In this document: piece by piece, positions 1,350-14,714 of the stretch
Numbering within the stretch: position 1 is the stretch's first letter
Layout of the letters: every line of letters starts with the position of its first letter
NCBI GenBank assembly: GCA_043818055.1
Contig: JBDRGF010000090.1
Span: forward strand, 1 to 14,714
DNA: 14,714 nt
Direction: 5' to 3'
DNA from: Pseudomonadota bacterium
GTDB taxonomy: Bacteria; UBA10199; 2-02-FULL-44-16; JBDRGF01
The notes under the pieces: model-generated
The model's database searches: none
Told to the model about the DNA's origin: nothing
The model's input: only the letters and a program-made list of their open reading frames with translations
Position numbers and translations under genes: made by a program

Positions 1350-1814
1350 ATGATCGAAATTCCAAGGGAAAAATTGGTTGTGATGATGGAAGCCGGCTAC
1401 CTCTTTTTGGGGATGCAGCGATATAAAGAGGCTCATCAGGTCTTTGAAGGTGTGGCGGCGCTATCTCCTGATAGCGAAGTGCCAGTTGTAGCTCTAGGTA
1501 GCCTCGCCTTTTGTCTGGGCAAATTTAACGATGCGATCAAGCTTTATGACAAGGCGCTCAAAATCGATCCCAATAGCCTCTTTGCCAAGGTATATATGGC
1601 CGAGACCCTCTTCTTCAGTGGAAAGCCTGATAAGGCGAAAAAGCTTCTGGTGGAGGTGAGCACACACGACAGGCATGGTGCGGCTGGAGACTTTGCCCGC
1701 GCTTTGAAGGATGCGATAGATGACGGTTTTACCCCCGAGTCGCTCGAGGGGCACGCGGTAAAGAAAGGTAAAGGCAATGTCAAAACGAAAAAGACCCGCA
1801 AAATTCGTTCTTAG
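1350..1814 (+). CDS. TPR protein, SctG (YscG/CdsG)/LcrH-SycD-like T3SS chaperone
   Basis: About 3 TPR motifs (EAGYLFLGMQRYKEAHQVFEG..P; LGSLAFCLGKFNDAIKLYDKALKIDP; YMAETLFFSGKPDKAKKLL). SD AAGGGGG upstream. Follows the needle-like gene. Confidence 0.75.
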   Translation: MIEIPREKLVVMMEAGYLFLGMQRYKEAHQVFEGVAALSPDSEVPVVALGSLAFCLGKFNDAIKLYDKALKIDPNSLFAKVYMAETLFFSGKPDKAKKLLVEVSTHDRHGAAGDFARALKDAIDDGFTPESLEGHAVKKGKGNVKTKKTRKIRS

Positions 1815-2754
1815 TCTTATTCTCATAGGAATGCTCTTCATCGCGGGATGCAATCGCGTTGCGATATATCACAATCTCTCTGAAGAGGATGCGAATGCGA
1901 TGATCGTCTTGTTGCAGGAAAATGGCATCGAGGCTGAGAAGGTAAGAGAGGTTCAGCAAAACGAGGTCTACTGGTCGGTAGAGGTTTCGAAAGAGGATCT
2001 CTCCCGGGCGAGGCAGCTTTTAGTACATCACAATCTACCGCGACAGAAGGCGCTCGGATTGACCGGCGTCTATAAGGAGAAGGGACTCATCCCGACACCC
2101 GATGAACAGAAGGCGAGATACCTTTTGGCGCTCAAGGGAGAGATAGTCAATTCTCTTTTGAAGATTCCTGAAATAGTCGAAATCGATGTAGTGCTGAATA
2201 TCCCGACGAAAGAAGAATTTTCTGACGATACTGGAAAATCGCAGAAGCGTCCCACCGCCTCTGTCGTAGTGAGGGTATCCCAGACGACCGATGCAAGAGA
2301 GCTGATAACCGAGAGCAAGATCAAGGAGTTCGTGGCAAATTCAGTGGAGGGTCTAAATCCACGTGATGTTGCTGTGATAATCACCTATCTCCCCGGGCCT
2401 GAAAAATTTGTCGCGACTCAGGATTACAGGCTTCCCAAAGGGGCCGCATCTTCAAAGGATGTCGTGAAGGCTAAGGATGAAAAGAGAGAATCAAAGCTCG
2501 TAGGTCTGAATTTAACCGAGGAGTCCAAGGAGCGGTTGAAGATATATCTGCTCATTTTCTTTGTCGCTCTAGTCCTGTTGTCATCGGGCTTGATAATAGC
2601 GATAGTCTATGCCTCAAGGCTGAGGAGAAAATCATCCTCCTCTGAAAGGGGATTGATCCCATCCGACAAGAGATCTGCAGTCGAGGGTGAGGTGCTTGAG
2701 GATGGCGAAGAGGAGCCTCAAGAGGGAGAGGACGACAATATTTTCCCCGAATAA
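1777..2754 (+). CDS. sctJ: T3SS inner-membrane ring lipoprotein SctJ (YscJ/PrgK family)
   Basis: Lipobox IAG-C; IYHNLSEEDANAMIVLLQENGI; LIPTPDEQKARYLLAL; PTASVVV; IKEFVANSVEGLNPRDVAV; C-terminal TM helix and acidic tail. At 325 aa it is too short for FliF. Overlaps the TPR gene by 38 nt. Confidence 0.95.
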   Translation: MSKRKRPAKFVLSLILIGMLFIAGCNRVAIYHNLSEEDANAMIVLLQENGIEAEKVREVQQNEVYWSVEVSKEDLSRARQLLVHHNLPRQKALGLTGVYKEKGLIPTPDEQKARYLLALKGEIVNSLLKIPEIVEIDVVLNIPTKEEFSDDTGKSQKRPTASVVVRVSQTTDARELITESKIKEFVANSVEGLNPRDVAVIITYLPGPEKFVATQDYRLPKGAASSKDVVKAKDEKRESKLVGLNLTEESKERLKIYLLIFFVALVLLSSGLIIAIVYASRLRRKSSSSERGLIPSDKRSAVEGEVLEDGEEEPQEGEDDNIFPE

Positions 2755-2848: not shown

Positions 2849-3277
2849 ATGCAATTTAAGTCGATACAACCAAATCTTGTGCGCTATCAGATGAGAATGG
2901 TTCAGGGGGAAAATCCCCACGAACAGGCTCAGAAACGTCCCGGCGCATTTGGCCGGTTTCTTTCAGGCTTTGGCAAGATTATGGGGGCTGTTGCGGCTCC
3001 TCTTTCGTTCATCTTCCCGCCCGCTGCTATAGGTGCTGCTGGTATGTATGGGCTAGGTCAGATAGGTGATCAGGTGCAGGCCCGTGCTTATACGCGCCAG
3101 ATTGAAAATGTTCAGAAGCAAAAGGCCATGCAGATATCCTTCCCGGGTTTGGGTAATGCTCAGGGAAATGTCGATCCGGTGACCTATGGTGTCTCGATGC
3201 AGGATCAACAGGTTACCAATGTATTGTTTCAAAGGGATGCTGCATTGAATGATATGAATCAAAAGCTCCTTAAGTAG
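2849..3277 (+). CDS. Hypothetical protein with a hydrophobic Gly/Ala segment; candidate late T3SS substrate (tip/translocator/filament-associated)
   Basis: 142 aa, SD GGAG at 2840-2843. Amphipathic-hydrophobic stretch GAFGRFLSGFGKIMGAVAAPLSFIFPPAAIGAAGMYGLG. No Sec signal. Has its own sigma28-type promoter. Confidence 0.7.
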   Translation: MQFKSIQPNLVRYQMRMVQGENPHEQAQKRPGAFGRFLSGFGKIMGAVAAPLSFIFPPAAIGAAGMYGLGQIGDQVQARAYTRQIENVQKQKAMQISFPGLGNAQGNVDPVTYGVSMQDQQVTNVLFQRDAALNDMNQKLLK

Positions 3278-4050: not shown

Positions 4051-4091
4051 AGCTTAAATCTGCGACCAGATAACTTTACATGGGGGTAGTG

Positions 4092-4994
4092 ATGGCAAGT
4101 TTACCGGCGAAGAAGATGAAAAAAAGAATACCTTCCAAATTGGAGCTTGAGGACAAGGCGCGTCGAAAGGCGGCCGCCGAAGTCACAGCTGCAATCGAGC
4201 ATGGGAAGCGAAAGAGGGGCCCGATTCATTTTACTAAGAAGGAGATGGGTTTGTTGAGAAAGCGCGACGAACTCATCGCACAGTATATGCCCTTTGCCGC
4301 CTCCATCGCGAACAGAGTTTGTCAGACACTCTCATCCGCAGTCGATCATGATGAGGTTATGTGCAACGCGAGATTGGGACTTCTCGAAGCGGCCAAGAGA
4401 TTCGATCCGAAACAGGAGGTCGATTTCAGAACTTACGCGTATTATAGGATCAAAGGCTCGATATATGACGGTTTGCGCCGCAGCGGATGGCTGCCGCGCA
4501 CCTTGTATGCCAAGGTCAGGTTTGAAGAAGCGGCCAGCGAATATCTGCAGAACAAGGCCTATGGCGCTCAGAAGGATGATGTTTTGCTCAGCAAAACAGA
4601 TGAGGAGATAGCCGATACCGTAAACCAGCTGGCATCGATCTATATTGTATCTTTAGAAGGGAGCGAGGAGTGTGAAAACCTTGAAGAGAAGAGCTCGGAG
4701 ATGGATGTCGAACGCAGGGCGGAATTCATGCAGGTTCGTAAATATATGAGGGCTGCGATAGCCGATCTTCCCGACAAGGAGAAGAAGCTGATCATGATGT
4801 ATTATTTTCAGAACAGAACTCTCGAAGAGATAGGAAAGAGGCTAGAGCTGTCGAAGTCATGGGTCTCGAGACTCCATGCGAGGGCGCTTGAGATGATGCT
4901 TAAGAGGATTAAGACGCTCGCTACTCAGACGATAAGCGATAATAGCGAATCGACGTTCGATACATCCGATGTATCCGAGACGTTCGATTTATAA
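4092..4994 (+). CDS. fliA: RNA polymerase sigma factor, FliA/WhiG (sigma28) family
   Basis: Region 2 RDELIAQYMPFA...GLLEAAKRFDP...FRTYAYYRIKGSIYDGLRRSGWLPR. Region 4 AIADLPDKEKKLIMMYYFQNRTLEEIGKRLELSKSWVSRLHARAL. ATG 4092 has a GGGGG SD; alternative start at 4080. Confidence 0.9.
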   Translation: MASLPAKKMKKRIPSKLELEDKARRKAAAEVTAAIEHGKRKRGPIHFTKKEMGLLRKRDELIAQYMPFAASIANRVCQTLSSAVDHDEVMCNARLGLLEAAKRFDPKQEVDFRTYAYYRIKGSIYDGLRRSGWLPRTLYAKVRFEEAASEYLQNKAYGAQKDDVLLSKTDEEIADTVNQLASIYIVSLEGSEECENLEEKSSEMDVERRAEFMQVRKYMRAAIADLPDKEKKLIMMYYFQNRTLEEIGKRLELSKSWVSRLHARALEMMLKRIKTLATQTISDNSESTFDTSDVSETFDL

Positions 4995-5021: not shown

Positions 5022-5498
5022 ATGACTGTAATAAGCAAAGTCGGTGCAAAAACTGTTCAAAAGGCTTTTCAGGAGAGCCAAAAGCTCGCGAAGCCGCTCG
5101 ATAACGCAACCACTTTCAAGGATCTTATGAAGCAGGCGGACGATGGCAAAGAGTTTGCCAAGTCGCTGGGTATGAACAACGATGGCGCCGCGAAGACGAT
5201 TGAAACTATCGATGCGAAGGATGTGGCTTTCGATGCCGGCGATCTCACTTCGAATTCAAAGGGTCCGGATGGCAAGGAGAGGTTCGTTGAAATGTTATGT
5301 GAGATAAACAAAGGCCAGATGCACATGGATCAACTGGTTAATCATGTTCTTTACAGCGGAAAGAAATTCACGAATCAGGAGATGCTTGTGATACAGGCTC
5401 ATGTCTATCATTATGCACAGATGACAGAGATGACGGTGAAAGTAGCGGAACAAGGTGTAAACTCTGTTAAGACAGTGCTCAATACACAGGTTCAGTAA
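5022..5498 (+). CDS. sctI: T3SS inner rod protein SctI (YscI/HrpB2-like)
   Basis: C-terminal FTNQEMLVIQAHVYHYAQMTEMTVKVAEQGVNSVKTVLNTQVQ fits the inner-rod pattern (LL.lQ......EL..K........V..L). SD GGAG. Lies upstream of sctK/L/N. Confidence 0.75.
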   Translation: MTVISKVGAKTVQKAFQESQKLAKPLDNATTFKDLMKQADDGKEFAKSLGMNNDGAAKTIETIDAKDVAFDAGDLTSNSKGPDGKERFVEMLCEINKGQMHMDQLVNHVLYSGKKFTNQEMLVIQAHVYHYAQMTEMTVKVAEQGVNSVKTVLNTQVQ

Positions 5499-6544
5499 TG
5501 GGGGAATCGAATATCATGGGAACGCTCGAAAGACATAAAGTATTAGCCGCGATGATCGTGAAGGGTAAGGTCGATGATTACACTCCACTCGTCGATGCCC
5601 TCTCCCCTGAGGAGAAAAATCCTGTGAAAGAGTATATCAAAGAGCTGATGAATGAATCCGATGCCAGATACGCGGCTCTTGCCGAGATAAAAAAATTAAA
5701 GGCCAAACGCGATTTCAGGGACCTCGAGAAGGTTCACCCTGGATGGATACTTTACGCGCTGAGAGATGAATCTCCAAGGGTGATAGGCATTATCTTAAGA
5801 TATCTTCCTTCAAGGCAGGTCAGATACATAGTGCAGAACCTCCCGCCAAAGACCAGGGAGAGCCTTCCCCATATGGTGGAATCGTTTGCTGTTCCTTCAG
5901 AGGTGCTGGAGTTAGTTAAGAAAAAATTTATGGAGAGGTTTTCTTTTTTGAGTCCCGCCGTATCGGGTACGATTGCAAATCTCACAGCTGTCGATGGGGA
6001 AGGGGTAATGTCGATCGTTAAAGAGCTTGGAATAATGGAGTTGGGATTTGCGTTGTCAGGGCTCTCTAAACCATCGATGAAGATTCTCTATAATCGTTTA
6101 AAATTGAAGGATGCAAAAAAACTTAGGCAAAGGATTGTCGGATTTGAAGATGATTCCGCTTTAAGAAGGGAAGCGCGCTTCGCCCTTTTGGATATGAATT
6201 TAAAAGAGGAGGGCGAGGAGGAGCTTATACTAGAGATGGGGCTCAATTTTTTATCGAGGGCTATTTTGAAGGGTGATTCTTCGAGTGTCGATGTCATCTC
6301 CCAGAAGTTGCCCCCTCAATTTGGTTACAAGTTTAAACGCAAGGTCACTGAGAATTCAGTCTCCGTTAATGAAGAAAATGTGAAAAAAAGACTTAAGATC
6401 GTCTCAAAGCTTCTTTCTGATATGAGAAACGACCTGGTGATGGAGCTGAGCGATGACGAGGATACCGCGAGTTTTATATCCGAAACAGTTAACAGTTTAC
6501 AGTTTACAGTTAAAACCATCAGATATAATATCGAAAAACTGTGA
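5498..6544 (+). CDS. SctK-position sorting-platform protein with FliG middle/C-domain-like repeats
   Basis: VHPGW (SctK-type HPSW motif) is followed by LRDESPRVIGIILRYLP (FliG-M RDEHPQIIATIL-like) and VDGEGVMSIVKELGIMELGFALSG...KDAKKLRQRI (FliG-C-like). Located between sctI and sctL, with TAATG coupling to sctI. Confidence 0.7.
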   Translation: MGESNIMGTLERHKVLAAMIVKGKVDDYTPLVDALSPEEKNPVKEYIKELMNESDARYAALAEIKKLKAKRDFRDLEKVHPGWILYALRDESPRVIGIILRYLPSRQVRYIVQNLPPKTRESLPHMVESFAVPSEVLELVKKKFMERFSFLSPAVSGTIANLTAVDGEGVMSIVKELGIMELGFALSGLSKPSMKILYNRLKLKDAKKLRQRIVGFEDDSALRREARFALLDMNLKEEGEEELILEMGLNFLSRAILKGDSSSVDVISQKLPPQFGYKFKRKVTENSVSVNEENVKKRLKIVSKLLSDMRNDLVMELSDDEDTASFISETVNSLQFTVKTIRYNIEKL

Positions 6545-6585: not shown

Positions 6586-7260
6586 GTGGCAAAAATCGTA
6601 AAACAAAAGGACTTAAAAAAGACGGATAAATCCGCCCCTGCCGTTTCGAAGAGTTTCGTCAGCCCTATAGTCGGAAAGGGAGGCATCGTTGATAAAAAGG
6701 TGCTGGCTGCCGGGGGTAAGGCGGAGGATATTCTGAAACAGGCCCAGGTCGAAGCTGAAAAGATAAGAGCCGAGGCTGAAAAAATAAAAACGGGCATTGA
6801 ATCAGCAAGAGAAAAGGCAAAAAAAGAGGGATTTGAGTCGGGACGCGAAGAGGGATTGCAGGTCTTTACTGAAAAGGTAATACAGCTGGAAAGGGAGCGT
6901 GAGGCATTTTTTGAAGAGGCGCAGGATGAAGTGATGAAACTCGTCATGTCTATCGCCGAAAAGATCATCGGCAAGCTAGTCTTGCAACACGAAGGGATTA
7001 TAGAAGTTGTCGTGCGTCAGGCGCTGGAGCGGGCGATCGGCGACAGAATAACAGTGCGCCTCAATCCGGATGACTATAAAGAGATAACCGATAAGGGTGT
7101 TGGATTTGGCGATATCATCGACAGGACGAGAAGGCTCACCTTTCGTGAGGATGAATCGATCGAACGCGGCGGATGTGTTGTTGAGACCGAGGTTGGAACG
7201 ATCGACGCGAGGCTCGAGACGCAGCTTAAGGCGATTCGCAAAACGCTCGGGGTGGGATGA
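6586..7260 (+). CDS. sctL: T3SS stator protein SctL (FliH/YscL family)
   Basis: GTG start with AGGAG SD (6576-6580). AxxxGxxxG repeats ([13 protein letters not shown]), [27 protein letters not shown] overlap with the ATPase gene. Confidence 0.92.
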
Positions 7261-8627
7261 TGGAGAAGAGGGTAAAAAAAATTCAGACTGAAGTAGGGGA
7301 GTTAGAGATTCCCGTCGTCGATTTTCATAAATATCAACATCTCCTTTCATCACTTTCAACATACAATATAAAGGGGAAGGTGACTGAGCTGACAGGTCTT
7401 GTCGTAAGGGCAGTCGTCCCAGGCGTGAGGATGGGTGAACTCTGTTTTATAGTTCCATATCATGGTCTGGCCCCCATAAAAGCAGAAGTCGTCGGTTTCA
7501 AGGATCAGGAGGTGCTCCTGATGCCGCTTGGAAATCTTGAGGGAATAGGTTTGGGTAACGATGTCATTCCCACAGGGCATAACCTCACAGTGAGAGTAGG
7601 TAACGGGCTTTTAGGAAGGGTGCTCGATGGTCTGGGCGATCCGCTCGATGAGGACAAATTAGGCCCACTCGATTTTTCAGCTGAGTATCCCGTCACAGCC
7701 GAACCGCCCAAAGCGATGAAGAGAGAGCGCGTTACAAGGCCTATCTCGGTCGGGATCAGAGCGATCGATTCTGTTCTTACGGTTGGCGAGGGGCAGAGAA
7801 TAGGTTTTTTCGCGGCGGCAGGTGTCGGTAAATCCACACTGATCGGCATGATCGCTCGCAATACGGAGGCGGATATCAACGTCATCTGTCTCGTCGGTGA
7901 GCGAGGCAGAGAGGTCAGGGATTTTATAGAGGGCGATCTTGGCGAAGAGGGATTGAAGAGATCGGTCGTCATCGTTTCCACATCGGACCAGCCCGCGCTT
8001 GTCCGTTTGAAGGCGGCATATGTAGCGACAGCCATAGCTGAATATTTTCGCGATCAGGGAAAGAGGGTCATGCTCATGATGGATTCGGTGACCCGTTTTG
8101 CCAGAGCGCTTCGCGAAGTTGGACTCGCAGTTGGAGAGCCGCCTGCGAGACAGGGTTATACGCCATCGGTCTTTTCGATGTTGCCCCGACTTCTTGAGAG
8201 GAGCGGAAATTCAGATAAGGGTTCGATAACGGCTTTTTATACGATACTCGTTGCTGGAGATGACATGAACGAGCCGGTCGCAGATGAGACGAGATCGATT
8301 TTGGATGGACATATCATCCTCTCCAGGGCGCTTGCCGCCAGAAGTCATTATCCAGCCATTGATATTTCTGAGAGCATCAGCCGTGTCATGGATTCCATCG
8401 TCGAAGAGGATCACAAGGATTGTGCAAGAAAATTGAGGGAGGTTGTAGCTAATTATGAGAAGGAGAGAGATCTGATTTTGATAGGCGCGTATGAAGAGGG
8501 CTCAGATCCGAAAGTCGATTACGCGATTGAAAAGATAGAAGAGGTGAACGAATTTCTGAAACAGAAAGTTACTGACAAAATTTCATTCGAAGAGGCTGTG
8601 GAAAAGCTCAAAGAGATTTTTTCGTAG
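7257..8627 (+). CDS. sctN: T3SS ATPase SctN (FliI/YscN family)
   Basis: Walker [10 protein letters not shown] (injectisome-type AAAG), GERGREV, Walker [33 protein letters not shown]. Confidence 0.97.
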
Positions 8628-8638
8628 GGGTGTGAATC

Positions 8639-9151
8639 ATGGCTGAAAAATACCGCCTACAGCCTATTTTGACCGTGAGAAAGAGGGTGAAGAGACAAGC
8701 TGAAATTCAGCTCTCTATCGCCCTCAAAGAGTTCAAAGAGGCGAAGGAAAAACTTAAAAAACTCGAGGAAGAGAAGGCAGAAATTGTAAAGGCGTGGAAG
8801 GCTAAGAGGCGCGAGATGGAAAAAGAGATGGGGCGCGGGGCTTTTATCGGCGAAGGAAATCGCTTTGTGAATTTTTTAAGGAAATTAAAAGAGGATCAGG
8901 AGAAGAAGGAGAAGGAGATAGAAAAACAGAAAGCTGCGATAGAGAAGGCCAAGGAGAACGTGGCGAAGTGCAGAAGAAAATATATCGATGCGTGCAAATC
9001 GCTTCAGACGATGGAGAAACATAAGGAGTTGTGGGAGAAGAAACAAAAGGATATACTGACGAAAAAAGAGGAAAAGGAAATGGATGAACTCTCAAGAACA
9101 ATTCATTCATTAAAAAAATGGCGCGGCGAAAAGTCAGTGTTTGAAAATTAG
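8639..9151 (+). CDS. sctO: T3SS stalk protein SctO (FliJ/YscO-like)
   Basis: Lys/Glu coiled coil with N-terminal YRLQPILTVRKR and MEKHKELW...EEKEMDE. Directly follows sctN. Confidence 0.85.
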   Translation: MAEKYRLQPILTVRKRVKRQAEIQLSIALKEFKEAKEKLKKLEEEKAEIVKAWKAKRREMEKEMGRGAFIGEGNRFVNFLRKLKEDQEKKEKEIEKQKAAIEKAKENVAKCRRKYIDACKSLQTMEKHKELWEKKQKDILTKKEEKEMDELSRTIHSLKKWRGEKSVFEN

Positions 9152-9216: not shown

Positions 9217-10008
9217 ATGACCAAAAGAACAAAAGACGTTGAAAAACCGAAGGAACCAATAGCTTCTCAATACAACTATAAGCCGAAGCCGAAGGCAAAA
9301 GATCAGAAGAGCAAGTTCGACAAGCTTCTCGAGCAGAAACAATTCAAACAGAGCTCCACCGTACAGGATTCCTCGCTTTTCAGAAAGACAGCGACAGAGC
9401 AGGCCGTAGGCCAGGCTCGTTCGCAGGATCAGGGGGATCGGGAGAAGAGGGATGAGAAGAAGGAGTTTCAGAAGAAAGATGGCGACGAGAGGTCGTCGGA
9501 AAAGAGGTCGGAATCTGGTCAGAAGGTAGGCGCTAAGCAATCGCTGAAGGACCAAAAGCAGCAGGGCGGATCGCAGAACAAGCAAGGCGGCAAGGGTTTT
9601 GGCATGGCAAAGAGGGGTGTTGTAGAGAAAAAGGGATTGGAGCAGAAGGGAAAGAGCGACACCTCTGTCGTAGCAAAGGGAAAATTCGCAAGGGAGCTGG
9701 CACAGAGTTTAAAGGATTTGTCCTCAACTCGCGCGAAGAGTGTCGATCAGGAAGTATTAAATGAAATCGTAAAATACGTGAAACTTGCTAAGAACGATAA
9801 CGATGAGAAGGAGATGGAGATTCATTTCAGGGATAAGCTCTTCAAGGGGTTGAAGCTCAAAGTTGCATCGACGGGAAAGGGTAGGGTCAGCGTCCACTTT
9901 TCATCCTCCGATTCCGAGACGAGAAGGATATTTGATTCGAACAAAAAGCGTATTGTAGATGCTTTGGGGAAACAAGGAATAGAGGTTGATGAGATTAGTG
10001 TTAGCTGA
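9217..10008 (+). CDS. sctP: Needle-length control/substrate-switch protein SctP (FliK/YscP-like)
   Basis: Long low-complexity K/Q/E/S N-terminus plus a C-terminal FliK-type domain (EMEIHFRDKLFKGLKLKV...GRVSVHFSSSDSETRRIFDSNKKRIVDALGKQGIEVDEISVS). Conserved position between sctO and sctQ. Confidence 0.75.
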   Translation: MTKRTKDVEKPKEPIASQYNYKPKPKAKDQKSKFDKLLEQKQFKQSSTVQDSSLFRKTATEQAVGQARSQDQGDREKRDEKKEFQKKDGDERSSEKRSESGQKVGAKQSLKDQKQQGGSQNKQGGKGFGMAKRGVVEKKGLEQKGKSDTSVVAKGKFARELAQSLKDLSSTRAKSVDQEVLNEIVKYVKLAKNDNDEKEMEIHFRDKLFKGLKLKVASTGKGRVSVHFSSSDSETRRIFDSNKKRIVDALGKQGIEVDEISVS

Positions 10009-10023
10009 TATATATTTAATCTG

Positions 10024-10953
10024 ATGACTATCAAACCATTCAAACTCAAATTGAAAAAAGTCACCGAGAGGGATATCCTGTGGGTATCATCCCTTTTTGA
10101 GCTCCCCTCCCATCTGGGATTGAATCCCACTATCACAGAGGATATTACAAATATTGTTTCGAGGCAGATCGGCGTAAATATGCGGATGGAGCTCGATAAT
10201 TATCAGAGGGAGACGTTCGGTGCTTTGAAGAAGAGGTTTGCGCACACATTTTTCGGTTTTTCATCCGAGATGATTCCCGATTCGCTTGATATCGTAACCC
10301 AGCTCGACATACCCTTCACCCTCATGATGGTGGAGCGGCTTCTTGGTAGTTCCAAGACGACATTTCCACATCCGAGGGATCTGACAGAGATCGAACAGGG
10401 GGTCTTTCAATATCTGATTTTAAATATCCTCTCAGAGATTCACAAAACTTTAAAGGCCAAGAGCAAAACGAGATTTCTTTTTAAAAAATATATCATCGGA
10501 GAACAGGACTTGAGCAGGACTTTTGAGCCTGATGAGGAGATGGTGGTTCTCAACTACCGCATTTGGGTGGGCGATAACTGTGGTTTTGTCAGAATTCTTT
10601 TTCCATTCTCTCTGATCGATAAAGTCGGATCTGTCCCCGAAGAGATGTCAGAGTTCAGTGAAGAGCGCTTACAACTGGTCGAACAAAATCTTGAGAGTTT
10701 CGGTTATCTCAACACATTGATTTGGGCAGAGGCAGGCAGAAGCAACGTTTCAGGAGCCGACTGCGGGGGCCTTGAAGAGGGGGATGTGGTCATCTTCGAT
10801 ACTTCCGAGATCGATTTTAAAGATGGCAAGCCAGGTGGTAATCTCATATTGCGTGTCGGCGACGGATTGGCTCTTGGCCTCTTGTCAGATTTTGAATTTG
10901 CCGGAAAAAATGATATAAAGTGTAAGATAAAAAAGTTATACAGAGGAGACTAG
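10024..10953 (+). CDS. sctQ: Cytoplasmic ring protein SctQ, FliM-like large subunit
   Basis: FliM-middle-like LDIPFTLMMVERLLGS...RDLTEIEQGVF...GFVRILFP, then a SpoA-like C-terminus (IWAEAGRSNVS...LEEGDVVIFD). Confidence 0.8.
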   Translation: MTIKPFKLKLKKVTERDILWVSSLFELPSHLGLNPTITEDITNIVSRQIGVNMRMELDNYQRETFGALKKRFAHTFFGFSSEMIPDSLDIVTQLDIPFTLMMVERLLGSSKTTFPHPRDLTEIEQGVFQYLILNILSEIHKTLKAKSKTRFLFKKYIIGEQDLSRTFEPDEEMVVLNYRIWVGDNCGFVRILFPFSLIDKVGSVPEEMSEFSEERLQLVEQNLESFGYLNTLIWAEAGRSNVSGADCGGLEEGDVVIFDTSEIDFKDGKPGGNLILRVGDGLALGLLSDFEFAGKNDIKCKIKKLYRGD

Positions 10954-11069: not shown

Positions 11070-11576
11070 ATGCCAAGGCGCAAGAAGGAAGAAAAACCCG
11101 AAGAGGGAAGCGGTTTTGATGATAATTTTGATGAGTTCGACGAGCTCGAAGAGGAAAAGCCTGAAACTTCGGAGGATACAGATCCGATAGAAGAGGGAGA
11201 ATCTGAAGAGGAGGAGTTAGGCGAAGACCTCTTCGATGAAGATGCCTCCGAGGCTGAATCTGAAGAGGTAGAAGCGGCGCCTGAAGAAGAACTGCCCTCA
11301 ATCGAAGATGAAACACCGATGGAGGATGAATCATCAAAGGAGAATATCGCCTTCGAATCTTCACCCGATGTCGCAGTTCAACTCGTCGCCGTGATGGGAA
11401 AGAGAAAACTTAGCTTGAGGGATATTCTGGATCTTAAACTGGGCTCAGTCGTAGATCTAAAAAGGCCTCCCAATGAGACAGTCGATCTGGTAGCTAACGG
11501 CAAGCTGATCGCCAGAGGCGAACTCGTCGAGATAGAAGGAAAGTTGGGAGTTAAGATATTGAAGATAGTGAGGTAG
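11070..11576 (+). CDS. FliN/SctQ-C SpoA-domain protein with a long acidic N-terminal extension
   Basis: C-terminal SpoA domain DVAVQLVAVMGKRKLSLRDILDLKLGSVVDL...VDLVANGKLIARGELVEIEGKLGVKI. First ~96 aa are nearly half Asp/Glu. SD GAGG. Confidence 0.88.
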   Translation: MPRRKKEEKPEEGSGFDDNFDEFDELEEEKPETSEDTDPIEEGESEEEELGEDLFDEDASEAESEEVEAAPEEELPSIEDETPMEDESSKENIAFESSPDVAVQLVAVMGKRKLSLRDILDLKLGSVVDLKRPPNETVDLVANGKLIARGELVEIEGKLGVKILKIVR

Positions 11577-11653
11577 TTTGTAGTTCACAGTTCACAGTTT
11601 ACAGTGAACTGTGAAAACTTCGACCACATAGCTTTTACTGTAAACTGTAAACT
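11574..11653 (+). repeat. Heptamer inverted-repeat hairpin (YAGTTYA)n / (ACTGTAA)n
   Basis: tagtttg tagttca cagttca cagttta cagtgaa (11574-11608) and actgtaa actgtaa act (11637-11653). Same unit family as 6485-6575. Begins at the stop codon of the FliN-like gene. Confidence 0.85.
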
Positions 11654-11669
11654 TTATAATGGGGGATTT

Positions 11670-12026
11670 ATGTTTTTCAGTCCATTACTCACAGCTGCTG
11701 TTTCTACTGTAGAGGCGACGCCATCCACCACCATTGATTTTACATGGCTCTTTCTAAAGATGGTCATCTTTTTGGTGATCGTCATCGTGTTAGCGCTCAT
11801 CTTTCTCAAATACGGTGCCCCGAGATTGCGTAAAACTATGGGGATCGAGGGATACTTTGAAATTTTGGGGAGAAAAAGGCTGGAGGGAAGAAAAGTCCTC
11901 TATTTTGTTAAGGGGCCTGAAAGATATTTCGTGATCGGAGTCGCGGAACATGGTATAAGTAAAATCGCCGAATATAAATTAGATGAAATAGAAGGGGTGG
12001 GGGGAGATGCTCAGTCAAAGAAATAA
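11670..12026 (+). CDS. fliO: FliO-family membrane protein (export-gate assembly chaperone)
   Basis: TM helix (WLFLKMVIFLVIVIVLALIFLKYG) then FliO-type beta domain FEILGRKRLEGRKVLYFVKGPERYFVIGVAEHGISKIAE. Between the FliN-like gene and sctR. ATG 11670 has a GGGGGA SD, whereas the ORF-track start at 11604 lies in the repeat. Confidence 0.8.
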   Translation: MFFSPLLTAAVSTVEATPSTTIDFTWLFLKMVIFLVIVIVLALIFLKYGAPRLRKTMGIEGYFEILGRKRLEGRKVLYFVKGPERYFVIGVAEHGISKIAEYKLDEIEGVGGDAQSKK

Positions 12027-12789
12027 AAAGAGCCTTAAACTTTTCGTCGGTGTCGGCGTTGTCCTTTTAACTCTATCAATAAGCTCCATTGCGCATGCCC
12101 AGAACGTGGCCGCAATGAGCGTCTCAAAGCCGCTCGTGCTCTTGGGGCTGCTCGCATCTTTGGCGCTGGTTCCTTTCATGGTCATGATGGTGACCTCGTT
12201 TGTCAAGATAGCGGTCGTCCTCTCTTTGGTCAGAAATGCGATCGGCACGCAGCAGGTGCCGCCTAATATCGTCGTCACAGGCCTTGCTGTGATACTCACG
12301 ATTTACATAATGGCGCCAGTCGGGCAGGAAATTTACAGCTCTGCTAAAGGTGTTATTAATCAGGGGAGTAATCAGCCGATGATGTCGCAGGCGACGGTCA
12401 AGCTTCTCCTCGAAGGGGTTGAAAAGGGAAAGGGGCCAGTTCGCGCATTTCTCCTCAAACATTCCCATGAGAAGGAACAAAATCTCTTTTACAATCTCGG
12501 TTTGAAGCTGGAGAACGATCCAAAGAAGAAGGATGAGATTAAAAAAGAGGATTTTATAAATCTCATCCCAGCCTTCGTCGTGAGCGAACTAGCCGAAGCC
12601 TTTCAGATCGGTTTCATAATCTTTTTGCCATTTTTGGTGATAGATCTTGTCATAGCCAACATTCTTCTTGCCTTGGGCATGTTCCAGATCTCGCCGATCA
12701 CTATTTCGTTGCCGTTTAAGCTCTTGCTATTTGTGCTGGTAGATGGCTGGCACCTCATAGCGAGAGGATTGATATTGGGGTATGTCTGA
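12007..12789 (+). CDS. sctR: T3SS export apparatus protein SctR (FliP/YscR family)
   Basis: MMVTSFVKIAVVLSLVRNAIGTQQVPPN, LIPAFVVSELAEAFQIGFIIFLPFLVIDL..ANILLALGM, PITISLPFKLLLFVLVDGW. N-terminal signal-peptide-like segment ending AHA. Confidence 0.96.
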   Translation: MLSQRNKKSLKLFVGVGVVLLTLSISSIAHAQNVAAMSVSKPLVLLGLLASLALVPFMVMMVTSFVKIAVVLSLVRNAIGTQQVPPNIVVTGLAVILTIYIMAPVGQEIYSSAKGVINQGSNQPMMSQATVKLLLEGVEKGKGPVRAFLLKHSHEKEQNLFYNLGLKLENDPKKKDEIKKEDFINLIPAFVVSELAEAFQIGFIIFLPFLVIDLVIANILLALGMFQISPITISLPFKLLLFVLVDGWHLIARGLILGYV

Positions 12790-13055
12790 TGTCGGGATAT
12801 TTTGTCGCCATAGCAAAACAGTCTCTGTTTTTGGTACTGATTCTCACAGGGCCACCGGTGCTAATCGCCATGGTAGTCGGTTTGACCATCAGTATTCTCC
12901 AGGCGACGACTCAGATTCAGGAGCAGACGCTGACTTTTGTGCCAAAGCTCTTTTCAGTTGTTCTCGTCCTGGCTATCGGGGGACCATGGATGCTTGCGCA
13001 GCTGATAGGTTTTACCATTTCCCTTTATGAAGCAATCCCGACGTATGTGCATTGA
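12789..13055 (+). CDS. sctS: T3SS export apparatus protein SctS (FliQ/YscS family)
   Basis: VGLTISILQATTQIQEQTLTFVPKL motif, 88 aa, TGATG coupling with sctR. Confidence 0.96.
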   Translation: MSGYFVAIAKQSLFLVLILTGPPVLIAMVVGLTISILQATTQIQEQTLTFVPKLFSVVLVLAIGGPWMLAQLIGFTISLYEAIPTYVH

Positions 13056-13059
13056 GTTT

Positions 13060-13121
13060 ATAAAAACAAAGGCGCATGTAGCATGTGGCATGTAGGATGT
13101 AGTAAAGCCATGCAACATGCG
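13060..13121 (+). repeat. Heptamer repeat (GCATGTR)n with a short inverted arm, preceded by the leader ATAAAAACAAAGGCGCAT
   Basis: gcatgta gcatgtg gcatgta ggatgta (13074-13101), then gccatgcaacatgcg (13107-13121). The 18-nt leader at 13060-13077 matches 1233-1250 at 17/18 positions. Confidence 0.8.
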
Positions 13122-13132
13122 ATTTTTCCCCA

Positions 13133-14026
13133 ATGAATGATATCCTATCCAAAATTGGCGTTAATATAAATGTTACTTTTGCCCTCATCTTTTTTTCACT
13201 TCTTTGGGTGCGCGTGTTGGGAATGGCGATCATGATTCCCTTCCTCTTTGGCAAGCCGGTGCCGAAATATGTCGTCGTTGGGTCGGCTTCAGTTTTGGCG
13301 ATATTTTTGTTTCCGTACCTCATGCCTGCAACTCAACCTGACCTCACAAATGATTTCCTGATGCTCTTCATGCTCTATCTCAAGGAGGCCTTTTACGGTA
13401 TAGTCATGGGGTTTTCAGTCGCTATATTTTTCTATGGATTTCAGGCGGCTGGCCAGATGATCGATGGCCAGCGGGGTATGTCTATAGCCAGATCGATACT
13501 GCCTCAGCTGGGGGAGCAGAGCGCCCTCTCCGGCATCCTGCTCTTTCAGATGGCGGTCGTCCTCTATTTGAGTTTTGGCGGTCATCTCGTATTTTTAGAT
13601 TCATTTATGATGAGTTACAAGGCGTTGCCTGTGCTCGAGTTTCCTCAGGTGGGGCCGGGACTCTTTCCCCTCATGGATCTATTCGCCCGCATCACTGGGG
13701 AGGTGCTCTATATTGCCGTCCAGATAGCTGCCCCAATAATGATAGCGATATTCGTAGCCGACATAATCTTAGGTCTGTCAAACCGTATAGCCCCTCAAAT
13801 AGATGTCTGGATGCTCGGTTTTAATATCAAGGGCTATGTCGGAATCCTGCTCTTCTTTACAGCACTTGGGATGATAGGGAATCAGGTATATAATTATACC
13901 CAAAAATCAGTTATTTACGTTGAAACAGCTAAAAAGTTACTTGAAGGTAAGCCCGACGAAGTTCAGCTCGAACTCGACAAAAATATCGAGGATATCAAGC
14001 TGCCGATGGAGGTTATTACGAAGTAG
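13133..14026 (+). CDS. sctT: T3SS export apparatus protein SctT (FliR/YscT family)
   Basis: Multi-TM protein: RVLG..P, LKEAFYG, AAGQMIDGQRG, GGHLVFLDSFMMSY..LP, IAAP....DIILGLSNRIAPQIDV. Follows sctS. Confidence 0.95.
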   Translation: MNDILSKIGVNINVTFALIFFSLLWVRVLGMAIMIPFLFGKPVPKYVVVGSASVLAIFLFPYLMPATQPDLTNDFLMLFMLYLKEAFYGIVMGFSVAIFFYGFQAAGQMIDGQRGMSIARSILPQLGEQSALSGILLFQMAVVLYLSFGGHLVFLDSFMMSYKALPVLEFPQVGPGLFPLMDLFARITGEVLYIAVQIAAPIMIAIFVADIILGLSNRIAPQIDVWMLGFNIKGYVGILLFFTALGMIGNQVYNYTQKSVIYVETAKKLLEGKPDEVQLELDKNIEDIKLPMEVITK

Positions 14027-14051
14027 TATCTTACACAAAGAGGAGAGGACA

Positions 14052-14714
14052 ATGAGATTCAAATTTAACTATCGATATTTAATAGCAATTTTCATCCTAT
14101 TTTTATCACTCATTTTTTTCGCACATGAGATGAGTGCAATGGAGGTAATCAACAGAGTAATTTTGAATTTTGATTCTGAAGAGAGCTATGACAATGTAAC
14201 AGTTGAAAATGTTGATGAGCTTGCCTTGGAAGATATCAAAGAGAAAGATTCTGATATTGATATCGGAAGCTTGAGGTTATCAAAAAAATATTGCGACATT
14301 CCATTTTATAAAGATCAGAAACAGGGGATATGTTCTGCTTTTTTTCAGCAATACTATGGTGAACTGCTCGTTTGGAGCAGCTTAGTCTCAGCCACTTCGA
14401 TAAATGGAAAGTTTGTTCATGAGAATTTAACCTATTTTAATGGGATTGATATTTCAACCAGGCCGGAAATTGAAGAAGAGCGGGCGATCGAAATCGTGCA
14501 AGGAAGACTCTCTACTGAGAAGAAGCCGGAGCTGGTTGAGCTGGTTGTTTTTCCGCATGGAAGTGATTTGGATCGGATCTATTCACTGAGTTGGAAGATC
14601 GATATGCCTATGACGCACGATGACAGGGTGATGACTCTCTTTATAGATGCGATATCGGGGCGGACGCTCTACGACTATAACAGAGTTGACTATCAGATTG
14701 GCGCTAAAGGGAGT
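14052..14714 (+). CDS. Secreted FTP/PepSY propeptide-containing protein, probable M4/M36 metallopeptidase precursor (partial, runs off the window)
   Basis: Not in the ORF track because it has no stop. SD AGGAGAGG, ATG 14052, open to the window end (221 codons). Signal peptide MRFKFNYRYLIAIFILFLSLIFFA; FTP-like FQQYYGELLVW; PepSY-like PEIEEERAIEIV...ELVVFP...YSLSWKI...FIDAISGRTL. No HEXXH catalytic motif within the window. Confidence 0.75.
   Translation, partial: MRFKFNYRYLIAIFILFLSLIFFAHEMSAMEVINRVILNFDSEESYDNVTVENVDELALEDIKEKDSDIDIGSLRLSKKYCDIPFYKDQKQGICSAFFQQYYGELLVWSSLVSATSINGKFVHENLTYFNGIDISTRPEIEEERAIEIVQGRLSTEKKPELVELVVFPHGSDLDRIYSLSWKIDMPMTHDDRVMTLFIDAISGRTLYDYNRVDYQIGAKGS

Follow-up and report, generated by a model that had tools for sequence, protein, structure and literature searches.

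The gene at positions 5498..6544 (+ strand) of the 14,714-nucleotide stretch analyzed here (the window), which is one complete contig (C90) of a metagenome-assembled genome (MAG) of the phylum UBA10199 (2.93 Mb, 93.6% complete), encodes a 348-residue protein that we identify, with near certainty, as a derivative of the flagellar protein FliG. On balance, this FliG-like protein is probably a paralogue dedicated to a phylum-wide, secretin-less, non-flagellar type III secretion system (T3SS), in which we infer that it acts as a torque-less adaptor, and its C-terminal module is probably shared with the injectisome protein SctK. The link to FliG is firm, that to SctK moderate. The protein consists of four parts, its predicted architecture being FliG_N plus FliG_M plus FliG C-bundle plus an extra module:

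5498..5713, + strand: N-terminal helical domain, weakly FliG_N-like (residues 1-72)
5714..5947, + strand: FliG_M (ARM_M) domain (residues 73-150), with H80-P81-x-W83 at nt 5735-5746 and E91-S92-P93-R94 at nt 5768-5779
5969..6226, + strand: domain resembling the FliG C-terminal helix bundle (residues 158-243), with the torque-helix equivalent at ~200-220 (nt 6095-6157) and no ARM_C before it
6227..6457, + strand: C-terminal extension, an SctK-like module (G248-L-x-F...A...K-L-P) of ~80 residues (244-320), absent from canonical FliG

To describe the relationship to FliG, we used two profiles, one of 19 homologues from a word-indexed protein database (A1) and one of 148 full-length family members (A3); in an exhaustive library of representatives, the family comprised 746 proteins at E<=1e-3, 130 of them at E<=1e-30. 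Residues 40-147 of A1 matched Helicobacter pylori FliG (3usw, E 1.4e-6) and positions 153-243 matched residues 130-220 of Thermotoga maritima FliG_C (1lkv, E 3.8e-5), the two matches being collinear across the M and C domains, and A3 found the same structures at 2.5e-18 and 7.6e-18, together with Salmonella FliG at 5.9e-11. Pfam FliG_M was recognized in the protein itself (28.3 bits against a cut-off of 25, residues 83-149) and in 19/19 of its close homologues, FliG_C in 18/19 of these, and the 148 members yielded 132 matches to FliG_C, 126 to FliG_M, 89 to MgtE_N and 25 to FliG_N. For the N-terminal domain, A3 matched the FliG_N structure 5tdy_B weakly (E 0.045), and residues 8-79 of a canonical FliG from the same phylum matched family columns 12-79. 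When five canonical FliGs of the phylum were aligned to A3 with hhalign, the match extended over 243 columns and included the N domain, the M domain and the C-bundle (Prob 98%, E 1.6e-13). The AlphaFold2 model of the protein (mean predicted local distance difference test score, pLDDT, of 80) was likewise nearest to FliG chains, which made up all of the 12 best Foldseek matches (E 6e-3 to 0.15). Three results pull in the opposite direction: the protein's own Pfam FliG_C match stayed below the cut-off (19.9 vs 23.3 bits) and was located on the M domain, the FliG equivalog TIGR00207 failed (21.6 bits vs a cut-off of 226.7), and a single-sequence phmmer search of the PDB returned no FliG, its sole match being a dehydroquinase at E 0.38, so that profiles are needed to see the relationship. 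For 20 representatives looked up, the few names returned were 'FliG C-terminal domain-containing protein [Deltaproteobacteria bacterium]', a single 'flagellar motor switch protein FliG' at JGI, and hypothetical proteins.

Judged from these alignments, the M and C blocks are true FliG_M and FliG_C homologues, well beyond chance. The original prediction, made from the DNA alone, had proposed recognizable FliG domains at this locus; the open reading frame (ORF) and the strings it quoted are present at 5498..6544, and both of its domain assignments held. For the M block, Pfam FliG_M scored above its cut-off, A1 aligned to 3usw, and ESPR was placed opposite EHPQ of the FliG structures (A1, A3). The C block emerged from the profiles (A1, A3) and from structure, the single sequence alone not revealing it. 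The profile matches were thus significant for FliG_M and FliG_C and not confined to MgtE_N. The MgtE_N matches could be taken to mean that the protein has a regulatory rather than a structural role, as an MgtE_N-like or anti-sigma-type protein of the cytoplasm partnered with the neighboring sigma-28 factor, the more so as its gene always follows the sigma-28 gene and the gene of a 158-aa protein in related loci. However, MgtE_N and FliG have a common fold, the matches to FliG are much the stronger ones and extend over three domains, and the gene lies directly before sctL and sctN, like fliG. We therefore regard a regulatory function as highly improbable.

Compared with canonical FliG (PDB 3hjl, 1lkv, 3usw and 8umd), the protein has lost one segment and gained another. 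The stretch comprising helix MC and ARM_C falls opposite a gap in the family alignment (hhalign), the high-confidence model has a loop of ~15 residues where ARM_C would sit, and an ARM_C sub-profile matched only the M domain of the family, weakly (P 0.022). Because ARM_C is absent, the protein probably does not build a FliG-type ring by ARM_M/ARM_C stacking. At the other end, canonical FliG terminates near residue 243 of the FliG-like protein, and residues 244-320 form four additional helices that have no counterpart there. In a comparison with canonical FliG, this extension matched the C-bundle weakly (Prob 11.9%, P 0.0025), and it is possible that it represents a partial duplication of the C-bundle. 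Two features are common to both proteins, namely the gene position before fliH/sctL and the Glu and Pro of the FliM-binding motif EHPQR. Among the 148 members, E91 is present in 147 and P93 in 137, the His column being mostly Ser and the Gln column mostly Arg; being near-fixed, E91 and P93 indicate that the Glu and Pro of this motif survive as ESPR. Other near-fixed residues are W83 (146 of 148), G178 (146), E181 (133), R200 (134) and A226 (134).

Unlike this motif, the torque charges are not conserved. Taking the torque residues to be E. coli K264, R281, D288, D289 and R297, we located their equivalents at S187, K204, Q211, R212 and S220 in the HMMER register, and one residue earlier in the hhalign register (L186, L203, R210/Q211). 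Neither register keeps the Lys of ALKG or the acidic pair. Across the 148 members, none of the five columns is conserved and there is no conserved acidic pair, which agrees with the earlier claim that the torque charges have been replaced. The D289-equivalent column holds Arg in 69/148 members and Arg or Lys in 83/148. This residual charge pattern, together with the one MotA_ExbB-family gene of the genome, could argue for a protein that is still coupled to a rotor and stator and is driven, via another interface, by a non-flagellar stator of the Tol/Exb/Mot family. Yet the lone MotA_ExbB-family gene is found on another contig and encodes no MotA_N domain, its 250-aa frame being typical of TolQ/ExbB, no stator gene occurs in any of the 12 syntenic loci, and the remaining four torque columns are variable; a stator-driven FliG-like protein is thus scarcely credible. 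With the charged ridge lost and no gene for a MotA_N-type stator, the FliG-like protein would experience no torque from a stator and would not rotate. The family also offers a natural experiment for telling the assembly-related parts of FliG from those related to torque.

For the comparison with SctK, we used YscK from a Yersinia enterocolitica plasmid record and a 12-row family alignment of the Ysc type only. The search for YscK homologues returned only 18 close, Yersinia/Aeromonas-type proteins, and the resulting profile is shallow (effective number of sequences, Neff, 2.3). The C-terminal extension (residues 240-322) aligned to YscK with Prob 50.7% and E 1.6e-4 in hhalign, residues 243-285 being placed on YscK 142-184, and sub-profiles of A3, A1 and A7 returned the same core register (YscK 143-173). 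The common core consists of G-L-x-F...A and [KR]-L-P. None of 200 column shuffles reached the observed score (26.1 vs a mean of 10.3, standard deviation 2.0, maximum 16.6), the reversed extension scored 13.3, and three unrelated alignments scored 8.5-11.8. Canonical FliG compared with YscK gave P 0.47. In an exhaustive VIA-align structure search of 48,161 chains, PscK was the best non-FliG match for two independent models, in the same register.

A number of observations weigh against a link to SctK. The full-length A3 profile aligned to YscK with only Prob 6.4% (P 0.0058), a score reached by 1/100 column and 3/100 block shuffles; the M domain showed no similarity to YscK (score 12.6, reached by 26/100 shuffles), and the C-bundle matched weakly and in another register. 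None of the 148 members matched Pfam YscK or OrgA_MxiK at E<=0.01, and A3 did not find PscK among the PDB sequences. Furthermore, the extension was picked as a sub-region after the first alignment had been seen, and the SctK side was represented by a single family, the Ysc type, with 12 close sequences. In light of these data, the similarity to SctK appears real but short, confined to the extension and under conventional thresholds, and we grade it as moderate. Homology to SctK is probable, and we put a shared ancestry through the C-terminal part at somewhat better than even. The proposed sequence-level link between FliG and SctK thus stands in part: residues 243-285 and the PscK structure match lend it moderate support, whereas the HPxW motif, which had been called SctK-type, aligns to the 'DP.QL'/'KP.QL' start of FliG_M, in a domain unlike YscK. 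The same division applies to the profile comparisons, in which the extension matched YscK but the Pfam SctK families matched none of the members.

Beyond the match to YscK 142-184, the protein resembles SctK (YscK/PscK/OrgA/MxiK; PscK 6uie) in its gene position before sctL and in its expected role as linker between ring and SctQ, and relatives encode an FHA-domain membrane protein beside the cluster. The gene occupies the slot that is common to fliG and sctK, directly before sctL, as the original prediction had it. Unlike SctK, which has ~209 residues, the FliG-like protein comprises 348 and has an added FliG_N-like domain as well as a recognizable FliG_M. In the literature, the flagellar counterpart of SctK has been listed as "FliG (?)" by Abrusci et al. 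(PMC4045390), the crystal structure of SctK was published as a fold without relatives and SctK was shown to bind the FHA domain of SctD (both bioRxiv 10.1101/2020.09.22.308627), and the N-domain of SpaO has been described as FliM_M-like by Soto et al. (PMC9907115).

All real genes of the window are carried on the + strand. Upstream of the FliG-like gene lie, in order, genes for small proteins of 94 and 167 aa, a tetratricopeptide repeat (TPR) protein, SctJ, two more small proteins and sigma-28. The genes with an assignment, and the conserved gene that precedes the FliG-like gene, are as follows:

1350..1814, + strand: TPR protein resembling class-II T3SS chaperones; TPR families (Pfam), LcrH/SycD E 3.6e-10 and CdsG E 1.9e-6, both below cut-off
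1777..2754, + strand: SctJ-type inner-membrane ring lipoprotein with a 45-residue acidic cytoplasmic tail; Pfam YscJ_FliF E 1.9e-23
4080..4994, + strand: FliA/WhiG-type sigma-28 factor (Pfam, NCBIfam); syntenic in every related locus reaching that far
5022..5498, + strand: 158-aa conserved protein without a known family; stop codon overlapping the start codon of the FliG-like gene
5498..6544, + strand: FliG-like protein, 348 aa; possible alternative start at Met7 (nt 5516), which is the start used in its database copy P0002
6586..7260, + strand: SctL/FliH; Pfam FliH E 5.8e-22, T3SS_SCTL; NCBIfam
7257..8627, + strand: SctN/FliI ATPase (Pfam, NCBIfam); a third lineage in a quick tree, beside classic SctN and FliI
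8639..9151, + strand: SctO/FliJ stalk; YscO-like, E 3.3e-19
9217..10008, + strand: SctP/FliK-like length-control protein; Pfam Flg_hook E 1.1e-7
10024..10953, + strand: FliM-like protein (N-terminal half of SctQ); Pfam FliM E 2.1e-9, residues 91-201
11070..11576, + strand: FliN / SctQ-C (SpoA domain) protein; FliMN_C E 1.1e-20, SpaO_YscQ E 1.8e-20
11604..12026, + strand: FliO-like membrane protein; Pfam FliO E 3.6e-5, TIGR03500 E 8.4e-10
12007..14026, + strand: export gate, with SctR (12007-12789), SctS (12789-13055) and SctT (13133-14026); Pfam, NCBIfam

The order of the cluster is that of the flagellar fliF-G-H-I-J-K...M-N-O-P-Q-R genes, an injectisome-type lipoprotein replacing FliF. The FliG-like gene is immediately 5' of sctL, and sctJ lies 2.7 kb further upstream, with four ORFs intervening; this placement between sctJ and sctL recurs in 12 related loci, of which one is rearranged. 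Synteny of the cluster extends to six MAG loci that carry the label Deltaproteobacteria or Pseudomonadota, these being the confirmed 6 of 48 pattern matches in a search with an 8-row alignment, and to six further families of the phylum (one rearranged). A search with a divergent 24-row alignment for chlamydial or planctomycetal relatives yielded 6 proteins, none of them informative.

The remainder of the genome supports a non-flagellar T3SS without a secretin of its own. All core components were found (SctJ, L, N, O, Q, R, S, T, U and V), their genes being spread over at least three, probably four, contigs. SctV is encoded in single copy on contig C159 (10953-13103, - strand) beside rpsU, yqeY, dnaG and rpoD, and SctU in single copy on contig C88, each standing apart from the other T3SS genes. 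The sctU gene is oriented divergently to genes for a PEGA-domain Ser/Thr kinase and an FHA-GGDEF protein (C88, 5221-9176), a neighborhood that recalls the kinase and FHA proteins known at chlamydial T3SS loci. The SctJ of the window is the sole YscJ/FliF protein that a profile search of the genome revealed; TIGR02544 (SctJ) scored it at E 3.9e-41 and 140.9 bits, under the equivalog cut-off of 161.95 bits. Searches of the 93.6%-complete genome gave no match to Flg_bb_rod, flagellin (Flagellin_N), FliG_C or MotA_N. Unlike a flagellar FliG, the FliG-like protein thus sits in a genome without matches to rod, hook, flagellin, FliF or MotA_N, which supports the earlier claim that the machine is non-flagellar, canonical FliG being absent as well. 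The three secretins of the genome belong to type II secretion system, type IV pilus-like and Tad operons, and a dedicated SctC secretin was found neither in the 12 related loci nor outside those three operons in this 93.6%-complete genome.

Flagellar traits nevertheless run through the cluster, and one may ask whether the protein is no more than a decayed flagellar FliG, left over in the remnant of a flagellar export apparatus whose axial parts are gone, its likeness to SctK being chance or the convergence of small helical proteins and saying nothing about the origin of SctK. The flagellar gene order, the FliM-, FliN- and FliO-like genes and the sigma-28 gene, all kept, fit this account, as do the weak full-length comparison with YscK and several properties of the ATPase. 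The latter passes the FliI_clade2 cut-off (649.2 vs 629.8) as well as that of SctN, and its best match in a plasmid collection is a clostridial FliI-like gene (58.9% identity). In a quick tree rooted with F1-beta, which sampled five classic injectisomes and no Myxococcus or chlamydial sequence, classic SctN (support 99), FliI including that of the phylum itself (96) and the present system (86) formed an unresolved three-way split that leaves the system between the flagellar and injectisome clades. However, the ring protein is an SctJ-type lipoprotein rather than FliF, and SctR scored higher on injectisome models (256 and 239 bits) than on FliP (200 bits). A relic would also not be expected to make PscK the top non-FliG structure in two models and in one register, or to let the extension beat 200/200 shuffles.

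The distribution of the family argues further against decay. The FliG-like protein was found in 92/93 species genomes of the phylum (E 3.5e-18 to 3.7e-139), most carriers having genomes of 1.1-3.7 Mb, and the single genome without it is 78% complete. Rod genes, in contrast, occur in 11/93 genomes (G010, G051, G055, G056, G057, G064, G072, G074, G082, G083 and G087), scattered over eight families, and are missing from 82/93, a pattern suggesting that the flagellum was repeatedly lost, or transferred, and that the non-flagellar system was kept throughout. In the five flagellated genomes tested, a separate flagellar locus encodes a canonical FliG (FliG_C E ~1e-28 to 1e-31), and a flagellar FliI (49-52% identical) exists beside the non-flagellar ATPase (72-82% identical). 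The FliG-like protein is therefore a paralogue belonging to a second, non-flagellar system, and the coexistence of a complete second set of canonical FliG, FliI and rod genes in these relatives marks that system as a separate paralogous machine. Given this retention and coexistence, we consider a flagellar relic unlikely.

Having placed the protein in a non-flagellar T3SS, we hold with good confidence that it serves this machine as a torque-less adaptor. It would form the layer that links the inner-membrane ring to the FliM-like/FliN-like (SctQ) assembly, which in turn would carry SctL and the SctN ATPase, a job equal to that of FliG in flagella and of SctK in injectisomes. Docking to the ring could occur through the N domain and/or the SctK-like C-terminal part, the membrane-side partner being the cytoplasmic tail of SctJ and/or the FHA domain of an SctD-like protein with FHA, transmembrane (TM), PEGA and TPR segments. 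ARM_M would bind the FliM-like protein, given that the Glu and Pro of EHPQ are kept.

Because its last module is probably shared with SctK, the family is a plausible intermediate between FliG and SctK. A more far-reaching, tentative proposal, to which we give a little less than an even chance, is that SctK descends, by shortening and fast evolution, from a FliG of the present kind and that the phylum's system represents a living intermediate, between the C-ring/export apparatus of flagella and the sorting platform of injectisomes. In such a descent, ARM_C and the stator charges would have been lost first, the C-terminal module would then have been gained, and the N domain would have been lost once the FHA domain of SctD took over docking. 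In the intermediate system, FliG-, FliM-, FliN- and FliO-like parts and sigma-28 would still be used, next to a lipoprotein of the SctJ kind and a ring protein with an FHA domain.

The closest known parallel is the 'Myxo' non-flagellar T3SS (NF-T3SS; Abby & Rocha 2012), later termed the needle-less T3SS* of Myxococcus xanthus, which is likewise non-flagellar and has no secretin of its own and no recognizable needle. It also stems from the former Deltaproteobacteria and has a Tad system encoded alongside, as in the genome of the window. According to Abby & Rocha (PMC3459982), the secretin-less Myxococcales systems are placed at the root of the NF-T3SS and reported without FliG, and a review describes the needle-less T3SS* of M. 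xanthus as working with the Tad system in prey killing (PMC10849154). Unlike the Myxo systems, with which it was compared by description only, the present system has a FliG-like gene as a fixed member. A second parallel comes from a chlamydial SctK candidate (cluster A0A0U5EPG3), the product of a gene between sctJ and sctL; the SPfast preprint (10.1101/2025.03.14.643159) reports that its model resembles Pfam FliG, YscK, OrgA_MxiK and HrpB4, with no claim of descent from FliG in the portions examined. In the ESM Atlas, a mostly chlamydial cluster of 288 aa was third nearest to the FliG-like protein (score 0.90); the chlamydial candidate itself was compared by description. A secretin, a needle and SctD all form part of the chlamydial system.

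Within the literature covered, which excludes most subscription journals, we found neither a FliG homologue described as a fixed component of any non-flagellar T3SS nor a demonstration of sequence similarity between FliG and SctK, the nearest being the structural hint for the chlamydial cluster. The origin of the injectisome sorting platform from the flagellar C-ring is an open question on which the family bears, since it is unmistakably FliG over its N-terminal two-thirds and SctK-like at its C-terminal end and thus offers a concrete, testable bridge in sequence and structure. The protein may be the long-sought link between FliG and SctK. Moreover, a whole uncultured phylum emerges as a universal carrier of a secretin-less type III system, a possible sign of a contact-dependent way of life, for example predation or symbiosis.

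Two candidates stand out as membrane-side partners of the FliG-like protein. The tail of SctJ (residues 281-325; window 2620-2754, + strand) is unusually long and acidic and carries an E-G-x-x-[LIV] motif in 5/5 aligned copies, making it a candidate docking peptide. Complex prediction for the N domain (1-78) and the tail (279-325) gave 0.00 in two runs made without controls and is evidence neither way. The second candidate is a protein of 666-750 aa with FHA, PEGA and TPR domains, encoded directly upstream of the cluster in 5/8 related loci scanned there (L007:1217-3394, L038:14771-16771, L039:14926-17178, L040:15018-17255 and L041:2208-4370). Its FHA domain is N-terminal and matches Yop-YscD_cpl at 52-63 bits (cut-off 33.2), and a TM-like segment was seen in 2/3 of the proteins scanned. 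The genome of the window encodes an orthologue on another contig (C154:4871-7018, - strand; 42% identity over 722 residues). Its topology is SctD-like and its periplasmic part unlike that of SctD, so that it may be an analogue of SctD that differs on the periplasmic side. A partner role is less easily reconciled with the other 3/8 scanned loci (L005, L006 and L036), in which the large upstream gene had no FHA match.

The small neighbors of 94, 167, 142, 137 and 158 aa had no Pfam, NCBIfam or PDB-profile match, and comparison of the small conserved proteins with YscI (hhalign) gave nothing. The 158-aa protein (5022-5498), syntenic in related loci, is highly conserved over its last 70 residues, which end in N-T-Q-[VI]-Q; it may represent an inner-rod or other axial or export substrate. 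The 167-aa protein (730-1233, + strand), syntenic in many relatives, has a Gly-rich center and, at its C-terminal end, a pair of strongly conserved helices; by eye, its C-terminus recalls the needle protein SctF, for which hhalign against YscF gave only P 0.055, and PDB and Pfam searches nothing. The conserved 142-aa protein encoded after sctJ (2849-3277, + strand) contains a long Gly/Ala-rich hydrophobic stretch, has no family match and may be a membrane-inserting substrate. At the far end of the window, an open-ended ORF follows sctT (13920-14714, + strand); it has a hydrophobic N-terminal segment, no Pfam or NCBIfam match and no counterpart in the related loci. Finally, the contig that carries sctU also encodes a 2289-aa protein (C88, 12596-19465, + strand) with SpvB, TcdB_toxin_midN, FG-GAP and RHS repeats, an architecture like that of Tc-toxin B/C components.

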